DNA of 64,000 nucleotides from Escherichia coli (lineage in GTDB: Bacteria > Pseudomonadota > Gammaproteobacteria > Enterobacterales > Enterobacteriaceae): the NCBI RefSeq assembly GCF_003018235.1, contig NZ_CP027437.1; one strand, written 5' to 3'. Made by a program: the position numbers and the translations under genes. Below, piece after piece: positions 16,066-35,126 of this stretch; the first letter of the stretch is position 1; every line of letters begins with the position of its first letter. A model generated the notes under the pieces. The model was not told the origin of the DNA. It searched no databases and worked only from the letters and a program-made list of their open reading frames with translations.

Positions 16066-16416
<351 letters not shown>

Positions 16417-22998: not shown

Positions 22999-23163
22999 GT
23001 TTGTTTCCTTAAGTGACTTCAGTACAGTACCCGTACTGTTTTCACGCTGTCAACAAAAAACGCGCCCGAAGGTGCTTTAATGAGGAGTGCCGCTTCTTTA
23101 TGTCTGTGAATTATCAACAACTTACGGGGAAACATAACCGCAAGAAGCGACAAGAAATTACAA

Positions 23164-24168
23164 CTATATGGACAGATTATGGACGCTTTCAGCCAGTGGA
23201 TTAAAGCTTATAGCATCCTGTAAAAAATCCGGTGCAAAATGCGCATATGTCATTGTTTGCTGGATAGTTGAATGTCCAAGAATCCGTTGAAGTGTTACTA
23301 TATTTCCTCCATTCATCATAAAGTGTGTTGCAAACGTATGCCGCATAACATGAGTTGCCTGTCCTTTGGGCAGATCTGGTTTTACTTCCTTTAGTGCTCG
23401 TCGAAAGTTTGTGTAATTAACATTAAACAATGCACCAGATTGTTTTATCTTGATGAGCTTTATAACTTCTTCGGATATAGGTATGGCGCGGGGTTTATTG
23501 GTTTTTGTCTGATTAAACATAACTCTGTTTCCCACAATATTTTCTCCCCGTAGTTTTGTTGCCTCTCCCCACCTTGCTCCTGTCGAAAGACACAGAATCG
23601 CTATTCGTTTGTTATCTCCAGTAAGATGATTGAGCAAGCGATCAATCTCTTCGTTTGATAAAAACGACATATCTGATGGTACAATCCTCAACTTCCTCAG
23701 ACCATGTAGCGGATTTGCATGGTGGAATTCTTCAGCATTAATCAGCACTGAAAACATGGCTGAAAGTACGCAGAGATCCCTGTTTACCGTGTTGGGTGTC
23801 AGTCCTGCACTGAGTTTGTTTGCACGATAACTCAGAAGGAACTTTCTGGTTACACCGTTGGCTCTGGGATCTCCCATTTCTCTGATCACTTTATTCAGCC
23901 TTTGCAGGTATGTCTCACCATAAGGCTGATTTTGCCCGTCGAGCATCCACCACATTTCGGCAAGTTCGGAAAGATGGCGTTTGTCTGCGGGTTTTTCCAG
24001 CCATGGTTTGTTATGCATGTTCTGAAGAACATATTTTTCATAATCCTGCGCTTTCGACTTCAGGGTGAAAATTTTTCGAATCCGCTTCCCTTCCGCACCC
24101 TGAGGTCTGACATCAACCTGATAACGTCCGTCTTTGAGCTGCTTAATCGACATGATTAGCACCTCCAA
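23164..24168 (-). CDS. int: Tyrosine-recombinase integrase, P2-family-like
   Basis: C-terminal catalytic region ...ATHVMRHTFATHFMMNGGNIVTLQRILGHSTIQQTMTYAHFAP...; ILCLSTGARWGEA and TKTNKPR motifs as I recall in P2 Int; true start may be the Met at 24153. Confidence 0.9.
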   Translation of the reverse strand: MEVLIMSIKQLKDGRYQVDVRPQGAEGKRIRKIFTLKSKAQDYEKYVLQNMHNKPWLEKPADKRHLSELAEMWWMLDGQNQPYGETYLQRLNKVIREMGDPRANGVTRKFLLSYRANKLSAGLTPNTVNRDLCVLSAMFSVLINAEEFHHANPLHGLRKLRIVPSDMSFLSNEEIDRLLNHLTGDNKRIAILCLSTGARWGEATKLRGENIVGNRVMFNQTKTNKPRAIPISEEVIKLIKIKQSGALFNVNYTNFRRALKEVKPDLPKGQATHVMRHTFATHFMMNGGNIVTLQRILGHSTIQQTMTYAHFAPDFLQDAISFNPLAESVHNLSI

Positions 24169-24243
24169 CGGTATTTTGTTGCTTTAATACATTTCTGTAC
24201 CTTGTAATGTATTCAATATGCAGGCCAAACCAGCATCCTGGTG

Positions 24244-24567
24244 TTATTGGTGTGATTTTGAGTTTGTTGTAGTTGAATCCTGAGCGGCCTCCGATTCTCC
24301 AGAGCCATCAAGAGAGAGAGCCGGGGCGATCTGCCCGGCCTGAGGGAAGGTTTTGCCGTGCAGGAGCCACATTGTGTATTTTTCGAACAGTGAGCACTGT
24401 AATACACGGAGGGCGATATCTGCCCGGGCAGGTTGATGTCCTGTTTCATAACTCTTAACAGAACCAAGAGCTATACCTGTTATCTCGCTAAACTTTTGCT
24501 GGGTTATTTTTTCAGCACGTCTGATCGCTCGTAGTTTTTGAGCAAAATCCATTGACAAGGTATTCAT
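24244..24567 (-). CDS. Immunity repressor, P2 C-like (HTH)
   Basis: HTH FSEITGIALGSVKSYETG; C-terminal KYTMWLLHGK..GQIAPAL resembles P2 C (KYTLWFMTN..GQIAPAL) from memory; same strand as int. Confidence 0.7.
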   Translation of the reverse strand: MNTLSMDFAQKLRAIRRAEKITQQKFSEITGIALGSVKSYETGHQPARADIALRVLQCSLFEKYTMWLLHGKTFPQAGQIAPALSLDGSGESEAAQDSTTTNSKSHQ

Positions 24568-24668
24568 ATAACGACTATCCTTCTTTTGGTTGTTGATTAA
24601 CGACGTTTGCAATAGCTGACTATAGTCGACAGTAGCCAGCAAACGCACCAACGATGGAGGATAACAAA
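24568..24668. promoter_or_regulatory. Divergent promoter/operator region between repressor and cox-like gene
   Basis: 100-bp intergenic region with perfect palindrome GACTATAGTC (24618-24627) and a GACTAT half-site at 24573-24578. Confidence 0.4.
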
Positions 24669-25127
24669 ATGCAGGAAACTATTGCAGAGGGGGGGATATT
24701 CAACGCTGGTGGGGATGACACGCAGTTACAGGAAAAGGAAGTCAGAAATAAATTATCACTGAGACTTGATGGACCTGTAGCGGATTTAGTTTTTCTGGAT
24801 AAAGGAGCAGCATACGTTGGGCTGACCAGGAAAGCGCTTGCAACAGCTTTACGTAGAGGCGAAATGCCTGGACATAAGAAAAGAAAAAATCCTGAAGATG
24901 AAACATCGCGTGGAGTGTGGATTTTTAACGTCAAGGCATGGAATGAACTTGCTGATATTTTGCCTGAAATTGAGCCACCAGAATGGCATCACTGGAAAGA
25001 TTACTGGTTATACAACCGAAACACTCGGAAATTTCAAAAGATTGATAAACAAGATTGTACACAGATTAATGGTAAACGTGTTTACAGGCCGCGTCAGAGC
25101 AGACTGGAAAAAGCACGTCAGTCATGA
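24669..25127 (+). CDS. Hypothetical DNA-binding protein in cox/apl position (possible excisionase or lytic-switch regulator)
   Basis: GGAGG SD 9 nt upstream; segment LVFLDKGAAYVGLTRKALATALRRGEMP resembles excisionase/AlpA-type HTH; divergent from repressor. Confidence 0.35.
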   Translation: MQETIAEGGIFNAGGDDTQLQEKEVRNKLSLRLDGPVADLVFLDKGAAYVGLTRKALATALRRGEMPGHKKRKNPEDETSRGVWIFNVKAWNELADILPEIEPPEWHHWKDYWLYNRNTRKFQKIDKQDCTQINGKRVYRPRQSRLEKARQS

Positions 25128-25299
25128 AACGGTATTTATTAGTAAGCAACAAGAAAGTGAATTAAACTCATCGGCAATAACTCGTTATTAAATTGTCATA
25201 CTGTCTGAAACTATTTCCTTCTATTACTGATGTGTGAGGCACGGAAAGGGAATTCCGTTTTTTTAGTGGTGCGATGAGAAAATAACAGAGGTGTCAGAA

Positions 25300-25485
25300 A
25301 TGGAAAAAGAAAAACTGAGACATTTTCGTAAAGAATTAAAAGCTTCTCAGCGTGTAATGACTTTGGCTATTAAGCGATTAGAGGAAGGACGTTATAAGTC
25401 TGCAGTGGAACTCATGCGTGCAGAAGCAGCGGATATATTTAAACTGGCAGATGAATTAAGTGATGTAACAGAACAACAATCCTGA
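25300..25485 (+). CDS. Hypothetical small protein (61 aa)
   Basis: ATG with AGAGGTG SD; helical MEKEKLRHFRKELKASQRVMTLAIKRLEEG... Confidence 0.3.
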   Translation: MEKEKLRHFRKELKASQRVMTLAIKRLEEGRYKSAVELMRAEAADIFKLADELSDVTEQQS

Positions 25486-26281
25486 ACACAGGAAAGTTAT
25501 GGGCTTGTGTGATTCAGAAAGTGTGAGGTTACGTGCAAAATGGCCAGACATGTAAAAAAGAACTTGAATGCAGTGTCGGCATGGTGGTATTTTTCATCTG
25601 CTGCCACAGTGCTGGCAGTCGGGAATACCACCCCGTATGTGTCAACGGCGACATCAGACGCCGCAAGCGTCTTTTTTGTTGTCGTAACCTTATACGCCAT
25701 GAAGCTCCATTTTATGGTGCGGTGTTATCCATTAAGAGCCGTTGCAAGCGCCTCTACCGGAAGGGGCTGGATAACATCCACCACCATGTCAATGGTAGCT
25801 CAGGCGGGGCCGACTTCGGTCGGGCCGGTTTCCGTTGGCACCGGTAGTGGTATCCCCGTCTGGGCTATCGCCAGTGAGCATACCACCTCCTGCGATAGCA
25901 GTATGTTATGTCAACGGAGGCTGCCTGAATGGCTACAATCCCAACCCAAAAGCGCCCAAAATCCGCGCTCCCCCAGCTCAGCAGTGACTGTCGTCGCCGG
26001 ATACACCGTGTGCAGATGGTTACGCTCCATTATTACATTCAGTGTCTCGCTGATAATCCGTGTTCAGTTGATTTTTGTTTTCCGTACTTATTGTCTTACA
26101 TCCACGATGATATTAAGGCTATAGATAATGAGTTAATTTCTCTTGGCCTGTTTGAACAGGCGATGGGAAAGAAAAAACGACGATAGTTTTCATCGTTATT
26201 AATTAACGTTGTCAGGAAGTATTAAACACACCGCTCACGCGGCGGGAATCTTACATCTTAAATATCTGACGAGGTGGAAAC

Positions 26282-27025: not shown

Positions 27026-27244
27026 GTGAATAAAGCACAACGTAATGCTGCAGCGGCAGCGAATCGTCACAGGGTCTCGCCGGAACAGGTGCTCATCTGG
27101 TGTGAGCAACTGAAACGCATTGTGGACACAGCAAACCAGAATACGCGGCACAACGAAAAGAGCAGGGCGCTTGAGCCGATTATTGCGTGGATTGAGCAGC
27201 AGAAGAAACAGGCAATGGAAGAAATCAGAAAACGGGGTGAATGA
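27026..27244 (+). CDS. Hypothetical protein (72 aa)
   Basis: GTG start with GGAGGTG SD overlapping exonuclease stop; translationally coupled to the next gene (ATGA overlap). Confidence 0.4.
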   Translation: MNKAQRNAAAAANRHRVSPEQVLIWCEQLKRIVDTANQNTRHNEKSRALEPIIAWIEQQKKQAMEEIRKRGE

Positions 27245-29283
27245 AAATGGCAGAAGAAAAGAATCAGGAATATGCATATGTATTTCCGGTAAAAAACGAA
27301 GCCGCCAGAAAACGCCTGGGTTTTGCGCATGGCTTTTACTGGAAGAGTGATTGCTCACAGGCGAGAGTGTTGCTTCGGGCGAATGTTGCCATGCTGGATG
27401 CGGGTTTTGAACCGGAGGATTTCAAAAAGCCTGTACGTGTTAATTTCCCGGTGGTGAACGAACTCCCAGCGGAAGGTGTTTTTGATACGGAATTTTGCCA
27501 CCTGTATGTACCGGGCGGTGAAGACGGCAAGACGATGGTGTATATCGACGCTGTAAAACAGGAGGCAGACAAGGAAAAAAACAACGTAGCCAGTAACACC
27601 AACGTCAACGGCGAAGATATGACTGAGATTGAGGAGAGCATGCTTCTGCCGATTTCCGCTCAGGAGTTGCCAGTTCGCTGGCTGGCGCAACACGGGAAGG
27701 AGAACCCCGTTACTCACGTTTCCAGAGACGAACTTCAGGCTTTACATGTTGCACGGGCGGAAGAATTACCGGCAGTTACTGCACTGGCGGTTTCCCACAA
27801 AACAGGCCTGCTCGACCCGCTGGAGATCCGCGACCTTCACAAACTGGTGCGTGATACTGACAAAGTTTTCCCTCATCCTGGCAATTCAGACCTGGGGCTC
27901 TTGACTGCTTTTTTTGAAGCATACCTGAATGCTGACTACACCGATCGCGGTCTGCTGACAAAAGAATGGTGCAAAGGAAATCACATATCCCGCCTGGAAC
28001 GTAAAAAAATACAACCAGAGAGCGCAGAACCGCTACGTGCAACCAGGGAAAGACCGCGGCGTAGTGAAAAACCAACCTTCAGAACGATTAATTATGAAAT
28101 CGCCTGTGCTTTATGCCCGGGTGCGGACTGTCATGATTTACGTCCGGTGGTGAATTCAGCGAAGAAACTGATGGCTGACGGGGATGAAAGATGGCGGGCA
28201 TGGTCGACATCTCTTGGCATTACTGAAGGGATTAAAAACTGGGACAGAAAAACGATTTTTGACATGGTCAGTCAGGCTCCGTCACATGTCACAACGGGGT
28301 CAGCAGAGGCGCGCAGGGAGTGGATTGAAAACTTTCTGATTGCACGTGGTGTGCGTGATCCGGAGTGGGCTGAGCCGCTTGTATGCGTTTCCGTACCGGA
28401 ACATGAAGATAATCTGGAAAGAGTTCGCGGTGCAGGAAAACGTCTGCGGAAGCTTGAGAATAGTGATTGCACATTTCAGGCAGACAACGGTTCTGGGGAG
28501 GCTGAGGTGGTTGAAGCGGACGAAAGCAAAGCAACGTCATCTGCTGAAATTCAGGATGCCGATAAATTACTGGCCGCTTACCGTGGTGAATATGTTGAAG
28601 GGATTAGCGACCCGAATGATCCGAAGTGGGTGAAGGGGATCCAGAGACGCGATGATGAGGACCAGGATCAGGCTGAAGCGGAACAAGACGACCAACACGT
28701 GGAACGGAACAGCCCAGATGCGAGACAAAACGAGCCTGATACGGAACAGAATGAGCAAGGAGCACTGCAGGGACCGGAAAAAGTCTGCGACACCTGCGGA
28801 CAGGACGGAGGTGGAAAATGTCCGGATTGCGGTTCTGTCATGGGGGATAGCACATACAGTGCCGTTTATGGCGGGGATCGAGAGGAGTCAGCGTATGTGG
28901 CAGAGCATGGTGCTTTGAATAATCAGAGCAAAGTTACAGTTGGCGAGGTCATGGAGATCATGAAAGCGGTTAAGCCAGCCGTTCATGTTGATGCTGAAGG
29001 GGAAACGGAAGAGATAAACGGTGATCAACTATCACTGCAGACTGAAAATAAGGATGACCGGTCATCACGGAAAGCGTCAGAAGATGTGCCCATGTTTATC
29101 AGTGAGACCGTTCTCCATAAGGAGGATGGTGAGGCAAATATGAATATCTGTGAGTTGGTGAACATGTTGCATCAGCAACAGGAAATGCTGAAAGAAATCC
29201 GCTCAACTCAGGCCCGCTTTATGGGCGCGATTGTAGCCATGCTTTCGGTTATTTCAGGGGGAGAGCAGGTAGGACATGAGTAA
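27241..29283 (+). CDS. Hypothetical 680-aa protein with acidic tract and CxxC-x9-CxxC zinc ribbon
   Basis: Long ORF with balanced composition; CDTCGQDGGGKCPDCGS motif; D/E/Q-rich segment; no NTPase motif seen. Confidence 0.6.
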   Translation: MKMAEEKNQEYAYVFPVKNEAARKRLGFAHGFYWKSDCSQARVLLRANVAMLDAGFEPEDFKKPVRVNFPVVNELPAEGVFDTEFCHLYVPGGEDGKTMVYIDAVKQEADKEKNNVASNTNVNGEDMTEIEESMLLPISAQELPVRWLAQHGKENPVTHVSRDELQALHVARAEELPAVTALAVSHKTGLLDPLEIRDLHKLVRDTDKVFPHPGNSDLGLLTAFFEAYLNADYTDRGLLTKEWCKGNHISRLERKKIQPESAEPLRATRERPRRSEKPTFRTINYEIACALCPGADCHDLRPVVNSAKKLMADGDERWRAWSTSLGITEGIKNWDRKTIFDMVSQAPSHVTTGSAEARREWIENFLIARGVRDPEWAEPLVCVSVPEHEDNLERVRGAGKRLRKLENSDCTFQADNGSGEAEVVEADESKATSSAEIQDADKLLAAYRGEYVEGISDPNDPKWVKGIQRRDDEDQDQAEAEQDDQHVERNSPDARQNEPDTEQNEQGALQGPEKVCDTCGQDGGGKCPDCGSVMGDSTYSAVYGGDREESAYVAEHGALNNQSKVTVGEVMEIMKAVKPAVHVDAEGETEEINGDQLSLQTENKDDRSSRKASEDVPMFISETVLHKEDGEANMNICELVNMLHQQQEMLKEIRSTQARFMGAIVAMLSVISGGEQVGHE

Positions 29284-32894: not shown

Positions 32895-33125
32895 ATGGCA
32901 AACCGTAAACAACAGCGCGCCCGCACTGAGCGTCGTCACATCCAGACCGAAATCAACCGCAGACTGTACCGGGCTATCACTGTCGCCAGAGTCATGTACT
33001 TCAATATGCTGTGTGATCAGGGATGCCAGATTGCACCTGATTACATTGCCTCCACGTTCAGTTACCTGGCAGACGATCTGCGGGATATGCAACGCCTGGT
33101 TAACGATCAGGCGCATAACCTGTAA
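32895..33125 (+). CDS. Hypothetical small basic protein immediately upstream of repA
   Basis: MANRKQQRARTERRHIQTEINRRLY...; alternative start at 32865. Confidence 0.35.
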   Translation: MANRKQQRARTERRHIQTEINRRLYRAITVARVMYFNMLCDQGCQIAPDYIASTFSYLADDLRDMQRLVNDQAHNL

Positions 33126-33203: not shown

Positions 33204-35126
33204 ATGACCGTGTATTCAGCGGGAGGTCCGCGCATGCCTGAGCCGGAAGAAGAACAGGCATTCACTGAAGAGGTGAACAGCGCCTTTTCCGGGCTGCCTC
33301 GTTTTGTGTCTGTAAAGCTGGGGCGCAGGATCAGCAGCGCATGGCAGACAAAGGGTTTTGCCGGTGCACGGGAAAAATTTGCGCTGATGGTTCAGAAGGA
33401 TTTGCCGTTCATTACCGGGGTGAATAAACGTTATGCCATTAATCCGGATGAATTACCGGGGTGGCTGTTTGGTGGGCTGGCATCTGATCAGGCATACGGT
33501 GCGGTTCATTCCATGACCTGGCGATTTAATGCCATGGTGGATGGTGACGACGGGGATGCGCATTTACTGGCTCAGGATCTGTCCGTGTTTCTTATTGCTG
33601 AAATGCAGCACCTGAGTGTTCTTCTTGCGGATGAAGATGCGGATGCGGCGGCAGATGCCATTTATGCCATGGTTGCCGGGCTTGTTGAGCATTTCCGGAT
33701 GGAGCCACCGGACTGGAAGCGTTTTATTGGCAGAAAGCTGACACTGGAGCAACTGACTGTTGCCATCAGCCGGATGCTGAGTGTTCGCTGGTGGCAGGGA
33801 AAACTCAGGGCATTCTCCCGTCGCTGGCGTGAACATCTGCTTATAGCTATGGGTGTCGTTCGTCGGCAGTCTTCACCGCACTGCAGTTATGAATGGGTGC
33901 AGAGGTGGCTGGCGGGGCGTAAGCACGGTCGAAGGCTGATGGCGGAAACGGACGTTGAGGATGAAGAAACAGGAGAAAGATTTTCACTTCTCGATTTGGT
34001 TGACAGCAGCATTTCAGATGCGGAGAAACGCCGCGCAGAGCTGATGACCAGGGTTAAGGGGCTGGAAGATTTAGCCCGTTTTGAAGGTGTGGCGCAGGAG
34101 CAGGGGTATATCGGGCTTTTTTTCACGATGACCGCGCCATCAAAATATCATGCCTGGCTGGAGACAGGATATCGCAATCGTCGTTATAACGGCGCAAGCC
34201 CGAAAGACACACAAAATTATTTCTCCGGACTCTGGCGTCAGATCAGTGCAACGCTGAGGCGCAGGGGGATCGGGATTTTTGGATTAAGAAGTGCCGAACC
34301 GCATCATGACGGAACGCCGCACTGGCATGGTGTTCTCTATGTGCATCAGGAGCATGCTGCCGCCTTACAGGACATTCTTGAGTATTACGCCAACCGCGAT
34401 GATGACGCGGGAAAAACGCCCATCCGCAAAGCAGGAAGAAAATCCCACCTGGAAATAAAACCGGTTCTTGATGATCTGGGGAGTGCCTCTGCCTATATCG
34501 CCAAGCATATTGGAATGAATCTTGACGGTTGTGCGCCAGGCGGAATGAATCATGAAACGGGCCATACACTGGTGGTCACTGCCCGCCACGCCTCGGCGTG
34601 GGCGTCATTATGGGGGATCAAGCAGTTTCAGTTTATAGGCAGCACACCGGTAAGTGTATGGCGTGAGCTGCGTCGCTTTAACAATCAGGCTCATGCTGAC
34701 CGGATAAGCCCGGCGCTGGGTGAGTTACACCGTGCAGCCAGTGAGGGTGACTGGAAAACCTATACCAGGCTGCAGGGTGGACCGTTTGTGGCACGAAGAG
34801 ATCTGGTCCTTCGCACATGGTATCAGCGTTCGGAGGAGCCGGATGAGTGTGGGCTACACACCAGTGCGATCAAAGGTGTTTATATGCCGGGGCGTGATAC
34901 GCCACCGGTAGTGACGCGTTCACGTAACTGGAGGATCACCCGGAACGTTACAACAGGCGCTCTCAATGTTAACCGGGGGTCTGCTTTAACGCCCTGGACT
35001 TGTGTCAATAACTGCATTTCGGGCAGAAAACGACCAGATGGTCATCCTCCGGATCCAGGTATAAGGATCCCTGTTCAACTGGAACTGAACTTCGGGGAAG
35101 AGAATAAAGGGAAAAGTGAGCAGTAA
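33204..35126 (+). CDS. Rolling-circle replication initiation endonuclease (HUH family; P2 gpA-like)
   Basis: GGGAGGA SD; HUH-type motif GTPHWHGVLYV; 640 aa in the position of gene A relative to int-C-cox. Confidence 0.75.
   Translation: MTVYSAGGPRMPEPEEEQAFTEEVNSAFSGLPRFVSVKLGRRISSAWQTKGFAGAREKFALMVQKDLPFITGVNKRYAINPDELPGWLFGGLASDQAYGAVHSMTWRFNAMVDGDDGDAHLLAQDLSVFLIAEMQHLSVLLADEDADAAADAIYAMVAGLVEHFRMEPPDWKRFIGRKLTLEQLTVAISRMLSVRWWQGKLRAFSRRWREHLLIAMGVVRRQSSPHCSYEWVQRWLAGRKHGRRLMAETDVEDEETGERFSLLDLVDSSISDAEKRRAELMTRVKGLEDLARFEGVAQEQGYIGLFFTMTAPSKYHAWLETGYRNRRYNGASPKDTQNYFSGLWRQISATLRRRGIGIFGLRSAEPHHDGTPHWHGVLYVHQEHAAALQDILEYYANRDDDAGKTPIRKAGRKSHLEIKPVLDDLGSASAYIAKHIGMNLDGCAPGGMNHETGHTLVVTARHASAWASLWGIKQFQFIGSTPVSVWRELRRFNNQAHADRISPALGELHRAASEGDWKTYTRLQGGPFVARRDLVLRTWYQRSEEPDECGLHTSAIKGVYMPGRDTPPVVTRSRNWRITRNVTTGALNVNRGSALTPWTCVNNCISGRKRPDGHPPDPGIRIPVQLELNFGEENKGKSEQ

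Follow-up and report, generated by a model that had tools for sequence, protein, structure and literature searches.

We analysed the short interval that separates the divergently transcribed repressor and Cox-family genes of a prophage in Escherichia coli. It occupies positions 24568 to 24668 of the stretch of DNA under study, which is 64,000 nucleotides long (contig NZ_CP027437.1) and is called the window throughout. With the repressor start codon at 24567 and the cox ATG at 24669, the interval is 101 bp in length, and is as compact as an earlier note on this DNA had described it. The same note had drawn attention to a perfect 10-bp palindrome, GACTATAGTC, and to the hexamer GACTAT as a related half-site, and had proposed both as operators of the repressor. 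Both sequences lie where it had placed them. We use C for the repressor, Pe for the predicted early promoter reading rightward into cox, and Pc for the predicted leftward promoter of the C gene. The genes and features considered are as follows, in order of position.

23164–24153, minus strand: P2-type tyrosine integrase gene (Pfam Int_N and Phage_integrase), downstream of the repressor gene and on the same strand.
24244–24567, minus strand: P2 C-type immunity repressor gene, an open reading frame (ORF) of 107 amino acids with a helix-turn-helix and its start codon at 24567.
24552–24557, plus strand: predicted Pe −35, TTGACA, in codons 4–6 of the repressor gene (10/12 consensus, 18-bp spacer).
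24569–24575, plus strand: putative half-site O1, TAACGAC, a direct repeat that abuts the Pe −10.
24573–24578, plus strand: GACTAT, consisting of the last 3 nucleotides of the O1 7-mer and the first 3 of the Pe −10 TATCCT.
24576–24581, plus strand: predicted Pe −10, TATCCT; the opposite strand is the repressor Shine-Dalgarno (SD) sequence AGGATA.
24589–24604, both strands: putative operator O2, an imperfect 16-bp inverted repeat GTTGTT-GATT-AACGAC, with right arm TAACGAC at 24598–24604.
24602–24651, plus strand: 10-bp-phased direct-repeat array, GACGTTTGCA / ATAGCTGACT / ATAGTCGACA / GTAGCCAGCA / AACGCACCAA; putative Cox boxes.
24618–24627, both strands: the perfect palindrome, at the junction of array units 2 and 3 (GAC, TATA, GTC).
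24619–24624, minus strand: Pc −10 candidate (a), TATAGT, lacking a good −35 and a TG extension and located 45 bp upstream of the cox ATG.
24646–24651, minus strand: TTGGTG (plus strand GCACCAA), candidate Pc −35 or last array unit.
24658–24666, minus strand: Pc candidate (b), TGTTATCCT, extended −10-like, the reverse complement of the cox SD region.
24669–25127, plus strand: Cox-family gene, 152 amino acids, with a winged-helix core and N- and C-terminal extensions.

The prophage is inserted between pheL-pheA and raiA. Rightward from pheL the gene order is int (−), repressor (−), the 101-bp gap, and the Cox-family gene (+), followed by a P2 gpA-type replication gene and then lambdoid genes. 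The virion and late genes are of the lambda family (Q antiterminator, gpA terminase, lambda-family portal, lambda tape measure, and J), and an ogr/Delta-like gene lies at the far prophage end. In this mosaic E. coli prophage, a P2-type module (ogr-att-int-C-cox and the gpA replication gene) has been joined to late and virion genes of lambdoid type, and the interval serves as the developmental switch of that module. The attachment of a P2-like switch to a lambda-like virion, which the earlier note had proposed, is borne out by the homology of C, the Pfam and fold matches of Cox, and the lambda-family late genes.

By sequence comparison, the repressor is a homologue of P2 C. A phmmer search aligned its residues 7–95 with the P2 C chains 2XCJ and 2L49 of the PDB (E = 2.5e-16), it is 56% identical to the C protein of phage Wphi, and it belongs to PHROG 147, transcriptional regulator; its Pfam HTH_3 score, 22.8 bits, is slightly below the cut-off of 23. 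The Pfam scan gave no peptidase domain, and neither that scan nor the comparison of relatives gave any similarity to 186 CI. The Cox-family protein scored 28.7 bits against the Pfam Phage_Cox cut-off of 27.5 and had no match in the PDB by sequence alone. In its AlphaFold model, core residues 40–97 had a predicted local distance difference test score (pLDDT) of 72–86, and both extensions were of low confidence. The top PDB fold match of the core was P2 Cox (4LHF; probability 1.00, target-normalised template-modelling score 0.59), followed by other excisionases. Where the model is confident, in the core, the fold of the rightward protein is that of P2 Cox. The start codons of C and cox are the same in the RefSeq annotation of an identical stretch.

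The C-cox spacers compared were those of relatives whose repressors are 45–94% identical to that of the window; they came from E. coli, Salmonella, Kosakonia, and Arsenophonus genomes, IMG/VR contigs, phage 705R2, Wphi, and P2. Individual relatives are named by strain or by L number. The positions of O1, O2, Pe, and Pc in P2 were taken from the annotation of NC_001895, and the Wphi promoters from AJ245959. Positions 23100–25500 of the window are 100% identical to the chromosome of E. coli O158:H23 CFIAFB20140388; outside this segment the two are distinguished by an insertion or deletion. A near-identity search with the same segment against 50,697 phage records gave no match, and therefore no characterised phage has this spacer. 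It is present in 5 of 5426 complete E. coli genomes. The exact repressor protein was indexed in 98 blocks of a public-assembly collection, and both contigs aligned had the same spacer.

A consensus scan of the gap gave TTGACA-N18-TATCCT as its best promoter-like site (10/12), and this site was retained in essentially all relatives. TATCCT was invariant among 17 family sequences; phage 705R2 has TAACCT. The operators of P2, P2 Hy dis, and Wphi have been mapped experimentally as two direct repeats of 8–10 bp, 22–34 bp apart from centre to centre (PMC1904268). In P2-type phages the repeats flank the −10 or −35 of Pe (PMC1904268), and Pe and Pc converge (PMC1904268, PMC1904263). Given these mapped operators, one would expect direct repeats around Pe, beside the repressor start codon, rather than a palindrome halfway along the gap. 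O1 and the right arm of O2, which is a direct copy of O1 located 29 bp away, flank TATCCT in the direct-repeat layout of a P2-type C protein, as judged at the sequence level.

The comparison of relatives extended this layout to nine immunity types. The 7–8 bp located 5′ of TATCCT differ among the types, and in each type they recur in direct orientation 29–34 bp downstream. The sequences concerned are TAACGAC (window), TAAGAAC, GGTAAC, (A)GTGAG/(G)ATGAG, GGTGA(G/A), AAGGGGAT, G(C/A)TAAC, and, in Wphi, TGGTGAC. When each type's own 7-mer was compared with those of the other types, the sum observed for the direct copy was reached in only 1 of 20,000 permutations. Most types also have an inverted copy 8–10 bp to the left of the downstream copy (50 of 20,000 permutations), which turns their O2 into a 16-bp pseudo-palindrome, its 6-bp arms separated by a 4-bp centre. 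Strain ES5 has an altered 4-bp centre and retains both arms; the TAACGAC copies and the recognition helix of the repressor are also kept in L015. The crystal structure of P2 C led to a model of a symmetric dimer that contacts two consecutive major grooves (PMC2995052), and by analogy the inverted arm of O2 fits such a dimer. A dyad-symmetric operator thus probably does exist in the gap, imperfect and 14 bp to the left of the flagged palindrome. We conclude that the TAACGAC repeats around Pe are probably the better-supported C operators.

Two sets of relatives are notable for the arrangement of these repeats. In L004, L026, and L027 (vB_EcoM-705R2 type), AAGATAACC starts directly after the −35, overlaps the repressor start codon, and recurs 33 bp downstream; the inverted copy lies to the right of the downstream copy (AAAGATAACC-TTTT-GGTTATCTTT), against the family rule, and the −10 is TAACCT. 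In L024, L025, L028, and L029, which are prophages of enterotoxigenic (ETEC), Shiga toxin-producing (STEC), and gut E. coli, both operators resemble true inverted repeats. Their O1 is TTCACC-ATAC-GATGAG, across the repressor start codon, and their O2 is CTTCACC-ACAG-GGTGAAG, a perfect 7-4-7 repeat.

The palindrome itself was no more than would be expected by chance. The window contains 61 perfect 10-bp palindromes, 8.4% of 101-bp sliding windows have one, and 9.0% of 20,000 dinucleotide shuffles of the interval yielded one. Another lies at 24421–24430, inside the repressor gene, and shows how common such palindromes are. The perfect dyad was limited to one near-clonal lineage consisting of the window, SCU-111, L030, and L031. 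ES5, 1504D004, 1604D011, L015, and L017 have GACTATAGCC at this position (T24626C), and more distant relatives have GAC-ATAA/ATGA-GCCGAC at the homologous position. From the bases in these relatives, T24626 is the derived base. ES5 keeps the recognition helix and both TAACGAC copies, yet its dyad is broken. L017 has a repressor 71% identical to that of the window with another recognition helix, and its O1 and O2 are of the GTGATGAG type; the palindrome region is unchanged between ES5 and L017 despite these different repressor and operator types.

These results indicate that the flagged palindrome is probably not the operator of the repressor. In our reading it is an accident of the sequence of the array units, made perfect by the single derived base T24626, and if it has a function, this is most plausibly to supply the Pc −10 through minus-strand TATAGT. 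The proposal that the palindrome and GACTAT are C operators was not supported: the palindrome occurs at chance level, its dyad is not kept, and the covariation is located at 24569–75 and 24598–604. The likeness of GACTAT to a palindrome arm, for which it had been called a related half-site, covaries in no relative. What stands of the earlier proposal is the broader part, that the interval is an operator and promoter region, since operators and at least one promoter very probably lie within it. Two other candidates that overlap the palindrome were rejected. A possible third C site (minus-strand TGTCGAC, 5/7 to TAACGAC) falls to 4/7 in ES5, where O1, O2, and the recognition helix are kept. The top-strand promoter TTAACG-18-TATAGT found by the consensus scan loses the final T of its −10 in ES5 (TATAGC), and its −35 is merely the variable O2 repeat.

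The palindrome lies within the 10-bp-phased array of the right half of the gap. The self-match of the array was 50% at a lag of 10, compared with approximately 15–37% at other lags (p = 0.001 for lags 10–11 and 0.005 for any lag from 3 to 15). Significant 10-bp phasing, similar or stronger, was found in 7 of the 9 relatives tested; the other two, L020 and L021, are of the ACAAG box class. As an example of such phasing, two copies of TAAGCCGACA precede AGCACCGACA in the L011 type. Between GCTGAC and the cox ATG, L017 and ES5 do not differ, and their Cox proteins share 99% identity. By sequence, the right half of the gap appears to behave as a separate module that stays with cox in the recombinant L017. 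In addition, the Cox wing helix falls into two sequence classes, which correspond to the GCYGAC and ACAAG classes of box. In P2, the binding sites of Cox are at least six boxes, 10–11 bp apart, that cover Pc (PMC3936717). The array is probably a Cox operator, that is, a set of cox-boxes over or next to Pc.

A perfect inverted repeat, (C)GTTTGC/GCAAAC(G), at 24605–10 and 24639–44 brackets the central units of the array; it was invariant in nine relatives (Salmonella types: GTTTGCAT / ATGCAAAC). The gap also has a mirror symmetry. Top-strand TATCCT at 24576–24581, the Pe −10, is complementary to the repressor SD, and top-strand AGGATA at 24658–24663 is the cox SD, whose complement is a bottom-strand TATCCT preceded by TGT and so extended −10-like.

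Pe is well supported by the scan and the comparison of relatives. The consensus scan gave no minus-strand promoter in the gap, and Pc is represented here by candidates. TATAGT, candidate (a), is kept in ES5 and L017 and survives the T24626C change. Candidate (b), TGTTATCCT, holds the sole TAnnnT hexamer on the minus strand that is common to all long-Cox relatives. The hexamer TTGGTG is retained in relatives ranging from E. coli to Arsenophonus. It lies 17 bp from TGT-GATGAT-like hexamers in the L020, L021, and L004 types (ACAAG class), and the window has no −10 so spaced.

Taken together, the homology, conservation, covariation, and periodicity described above lead us to favour, with reservations, a model in which C acts on the TAACGAC sites O1 and O2 around Pe and the palindrome lies inside a separate Cox/Pc array. 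In this model, Pe would fire rightward into cox from a predicted start at about 24588. C, expected to be a dimer like P2 C, would bind O1, abutting the −10, and O2, at approximately +1 to +16; occupation of both sites would occlude the −10 and the start site, and lysogeny would be maintained. Cox made from Pe would bind the array over or next to the leftward Pc, from which transcription would begin at a site that depends on the candidate chosen, and C synthesis would be shut off. All of these protein-DNA contacts, including those of Cox at its boxes, are predicted ones.

Several observations weigh against this model. Because TATCCT doubles as the repressor SD, its conservation is confounded and may be partly translational, and that of TGTTATCCT is confounded in the same manner by its coincidence with the cox SD. 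In the window alone, the TAACGAC pair is modestly unusual (shuffle p ~0.015), and TAACGAC is over-represented window-wide, with 12 copies against 4.6 expected, scattered and also in host genes. Window-wide motif counts did not single out the switch (AGCYGAC, 17 against 14 expected). The left arm of O2 in the window matches at only 5 of 6 positions. The corresponding left arm of O1 is not significant: a candidate inverted partner upstream of O1, overlapping the C start codon, was reached in 1339 of 20,000 permutations and matches at 3 of 6 positions in the window, and it was rejected. L017 is a single recombinant, and the array adjoins cox physically in any case; the link between Cox class and box class is based on just two classes. 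TATAGT is not kept in the Salmonella relatives, which have TTATGT (TTATGT or TCATGT in Salmonella and IMG/VR relatives). Placement of Pc by consensus failed, with no −10/−35 pair conserved across the family. Finally, a search of the att arms for Cox-type boxes gave no convincing phased array, though the excisionase should bind there; a GCTGACA/GCGGACG pair near the stop of a TM2-domain gene was set aside as uninformative, since it lies outside the arm segment conserved in related prophages.

Of the alternatives, the one that survived best takes the Pc −10 (minus-strand TATAGT, 24624–24619) as the only function of the palindrome, the periodicity being a relic of duplication or a matter of intrinsic DNA curvature. 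On the repressor strand, no hexamer in the gap resembles a −10 more closely than TATAGT, which, as noted, is kept in ES5 and L017; the annotated Pc of P2 also combines a strong −10 with a poor −35, at a comparable distance from cox; and the exact tandem duplication TAAGCCGACA ×2 of the L011 type could have arisen by simple slippage. However, the replacement of the hexamer in the Salmonella and IMG/VR relatives and the lack of a −35 and a TG extension count against it, and the periodicity persists in diverged relatives with different units, suggesting selection for phasing. We consider this alternative possible but unlikely.

Less probable still is that the palindrome and array bind no regulator and are only the 5′ leader of cox, with the two leaders mutually antisense and the likeness to P2 coincidental. 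The chance level of the palindrome and the failure to find boxes in the att arms would agree with this, and Pc could instead coincide with the cox SD (TGTTATCCT), in which case the array would be transcribed leader only. Against it stand the significant periodicity in the window and in 7 of the 9 relatives tested, the conservation of the blocks GTTTGCA and GCAAACGCACCAA between heteroimmune phages, and the homologous place in P2, which holds experimentally defined cox-boxes.

The proposal that a C dimer binds GACTATAGTC, with GACTAT as an auxiliary half-site, and controls both divergent promoters from there, must be considered very improbable. Both elements exist, CGACTAT at 24572–78 is exactly complementary to 24622–28, the symmetric dimer of P2 C resembles proteins that bind palindromes (PMC2995052), and the promoter-like TTAACG-18-TATAGT on the top strand overlaps the palindrome. 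These points are outweighed by the chance level of the palindrome, by the dyad being broken (GCC) in ES5, L015, and L017 and absent in all other relatives, by the identity of the region in L017, whose repressor and operators differ, by the retention of the recognition helix in ES5 with covariation at the O1 and O2 positions, and by the use of direct repeats around the Pe −10 or −35 in the characterised family members. The least credible alternative is an RNA hairpin in the cox or C leader, formed from the palindrome and the GTTTGC/GCAAAC repeat and acting on stability, translation, or termination: CGTTTGC/GCAAACG is perfect, predicted to be paired in the alignment fold, and present in 9 of 9 aligned relatives, but single-sequence folds were no better than shuffles (z = −0.8 for the plus strand and −1.5 for the minus strand), there was no compensatory change (the stem pairs never vary), no Rfam match was found in the gap, and a 10-bp palindrome without a loop is unable to form a useful hairpin.

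Other features of the prophage were noted in the course of this work. A C4 antisense RNA (Rfam RF01695, 74.2 bits, gathering score 45) and an isrK-like RNA (RF01394, 49 bits, gathering score 50) lie at 25600–25677 and 25788–25875 on the plus strand, 500–700 bp downstream of cox. The corresponding site in ES5 precedes an Icd-like pseudogene and a “derepression protein”, and the arrangement looks like an RNA immunity and antirepressor layer in the style of P1, P7, and P4 beside a P2-type switch. In the window, the ORF at 32895–33125 (+), which precedes the gpA-type replication gene (33204–35126), is annotated by RefSeq as a derepression protein; it belongs to PHROG 3688 (unknown function) and had no Pfam match. 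It is a putative relative of P4 epsilon, which acts as an antirepressor against P2 C, and it could inactivate a C-type repressor that is not subject to SOS.

A broader scheme can be proposed for the P88-like clade, and we offer it as tentative, with the chances somewhat against it. The switch would be a mirror-symmetric version of that of P2, in which the C dimer binds O2, and O1 as well in certain types, as a true inverted repeat; both promoters would have a TATCCT −10 that is the reverse complement of the SD (AGGATA) of the opposing gene; and a C4-type antisense RNA together with a P4 epsilon-like derepression protein would join in controlling a lambdoid, Q-dependent late region. If this were true, about 63 nucleotides of the leaders would be fully antisense within a 101-bp switch, and the reading of so-called direct repeats by a symmetric C dimer would be explained, with TTCACC-ATAC-GATGAG and CTTCACC-ACAG-GGTGAAG of the ETEC prophages as examples.

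The TATGGAC(A/G) direct repeats, two in each att arm (window 23166–23190; L022 ~16300–16330), match the arm-site consensus tgTGGaCa of P2-type integrases (PMC3448106); those of the P′ arm are situated within the 3′ end of int. The attL core lies at about 23058–76, and attR adjoins raiA. The core is imperfect, AACGCGCCCGAAGGTGC versus AACGCACCCGAAGGCGC (window ~23058–23076; L022 ~16240–16258), and overlaps the raiA terminator stem-loop. Within cox, the C-terminal extension carries the motif EPPEWHHWKDYW (residues ~100–115), invariant in the long-Cox clade; this region gave a weak match to the complex I subunit NDUFA12 (9f5x_N, E 0.013), probably by chance, and the extension was poorly modelled, parts of it having pLDDT <50. 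A G7 homopolymer at 24690–24696 (cox codons 8–10) is lacking in ES5. The L031 contig, whose repressor is identical, has G8 in cox, with a shifted frame and a gene call of 148 amino acids, which reflects either sequencing error or slipped-strand variation. Approximately 115 bp past the cox stop and before a small ORF at 25300, a hairpin resembling an intrinsic terminator (ACGGAAAGGGAATTCCGT plus TTTTTTT, 25241–25258) may be a terminator or attenuator of the early operon. Farther right, the RecE-like ORF at 27241–29283 has an intact frame of 680 amino acids, where the RefSeq annotation gives an incomplete pseudogene. Relative to NZ_CP076709.1, the coordinates of the window are offset by 3099 at 23–25 kb and by 2684 at 33 kb, indicating an insertion or deletion of about 415 bp between 25.5 and 33 kb.

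The analysis assigns probable operators and an early promoter to an uncharacterised P2-type immunity type, which is of modest practical value. Of more general use is the rule seen in nine types, including the experimentally mapped Wphi, that the 7-mer 5′ of TATCCT recurs 29–34 bp downstream, since it can predict immunity groups. The results also correct a tempting mis-annotation, that of taking the most eye-catching palindrome as the operator. As a sequence feature, the O2 pseudo-palindrome may be relevant to an unsettled question, the recognition of “direct” repeats by a C dimer that is symmetric.

The switch was also compared with known ones. The right operator of lambda (OR; CI and Cro) is likewise a bistable switch between divergent repressor genes, and the late and virion genes of the window are lambdoid. 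In lambda, however, both repressors share three 17-bp palindromic operators and the promoters are back to back, whereas here the predicted sites are separate and the predicted promoters would converge. The repressor lacks a peptidase domain, and the lone perfect palindrome in the gap is at chance level and not conserved, unlike a lambda-type OR. In the pR-pL region of phage 186 (CI and Apl), face-to-face promoters have between them helically phased direct repeats bound by the recombination directionality factor Apl (PMC7498355), and the 186 repressor uses inverted repeats, as O2 may here. The 186 CI is a two-domain protein of ~190 amino acids that forms a 14-mer wheel, uses distal operators, and needs CII; the repressor of the window is a C-type protein of 107 amino acids that aligns end to end with P2 C.

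P2 itself (NC_001895; 2XCJ, 4LHF) shares the C homologue and the Cox fold and has a C-cox spacer of similar length, ~110 bp; its Pe and Pc converge, as the predicted promoters would here. Its half-sites, GTTTAGAT, are direct repeats flanking the Pe −10, 22 bp apart. Its box consensus is TTAAA(G/C)NCA, compared with the (A/T)AGCYGAC-like units here. The P2 Pc has the −10 TATAAT and a poor −35 and lies 38 bp upstream of the cox ATG, compared with 45 bp for TATAGT; in our reading of the P2 sequence, its −10 is located between two phased cox-box-like units, as is TATAGT. The P2 virion is encoded by Myoviridae-type P2 genes and that of the window by genes of the lambda family.

Wphi (AJ245959; PMC1904263, PMC1904268) has the same divergent C and cox genes and the related C protein described above, with the Pe −35 TTGACA near the C start. 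In both Wphi and P2 the −35 is at or near the C start codon, and in the window it is just inside the ORF. As proposed for the window, O1 of Wphi is in the spacer and abuts the −10, and its sequence recurs in direct orientation as O2 some three helical turns farther downstream, at 34 bp compared with 29 bp. The half-site TGGTGAC of Wphi differs from TAACGAC, so the immunity type is a different one. The Wphi spacer is 152 bp compared with 101 bp, and its Cox has 90 amino acids compared with 152 and is ~20% identical. O2 of Wphi shows no inverted partner arm (2/7), whereas O2 here has one, and the annotated Wphi Pc abuts the cox ATG, whereas here there are only Pc candidates.

The closest module overall was found in P88-like Peduoviridae and long-Cox prophages (vB_EcoM-705R2, ON470623; PV468777; E. 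coli sequence type ST131 and ETEC), in which C is 54% and the long Cox 55% identical to the proteins of the window. The TTGACA-N18-TA(T/A)CCT framework and the right end, GCACCAACG-(SD)GAGGATAACAAATG, are kept. The operators differ in sequence and in some of their positions; 705R2 has two copies of AAGATAACC plus an inverted copy, shifted leftwards, and its box class is ACAAG. The P88-like phages are true P2-like myophages, and the prophage of the window is a lambdoid mosaic. The switch in the interval is of the known P2 type with a new immunity specificity.

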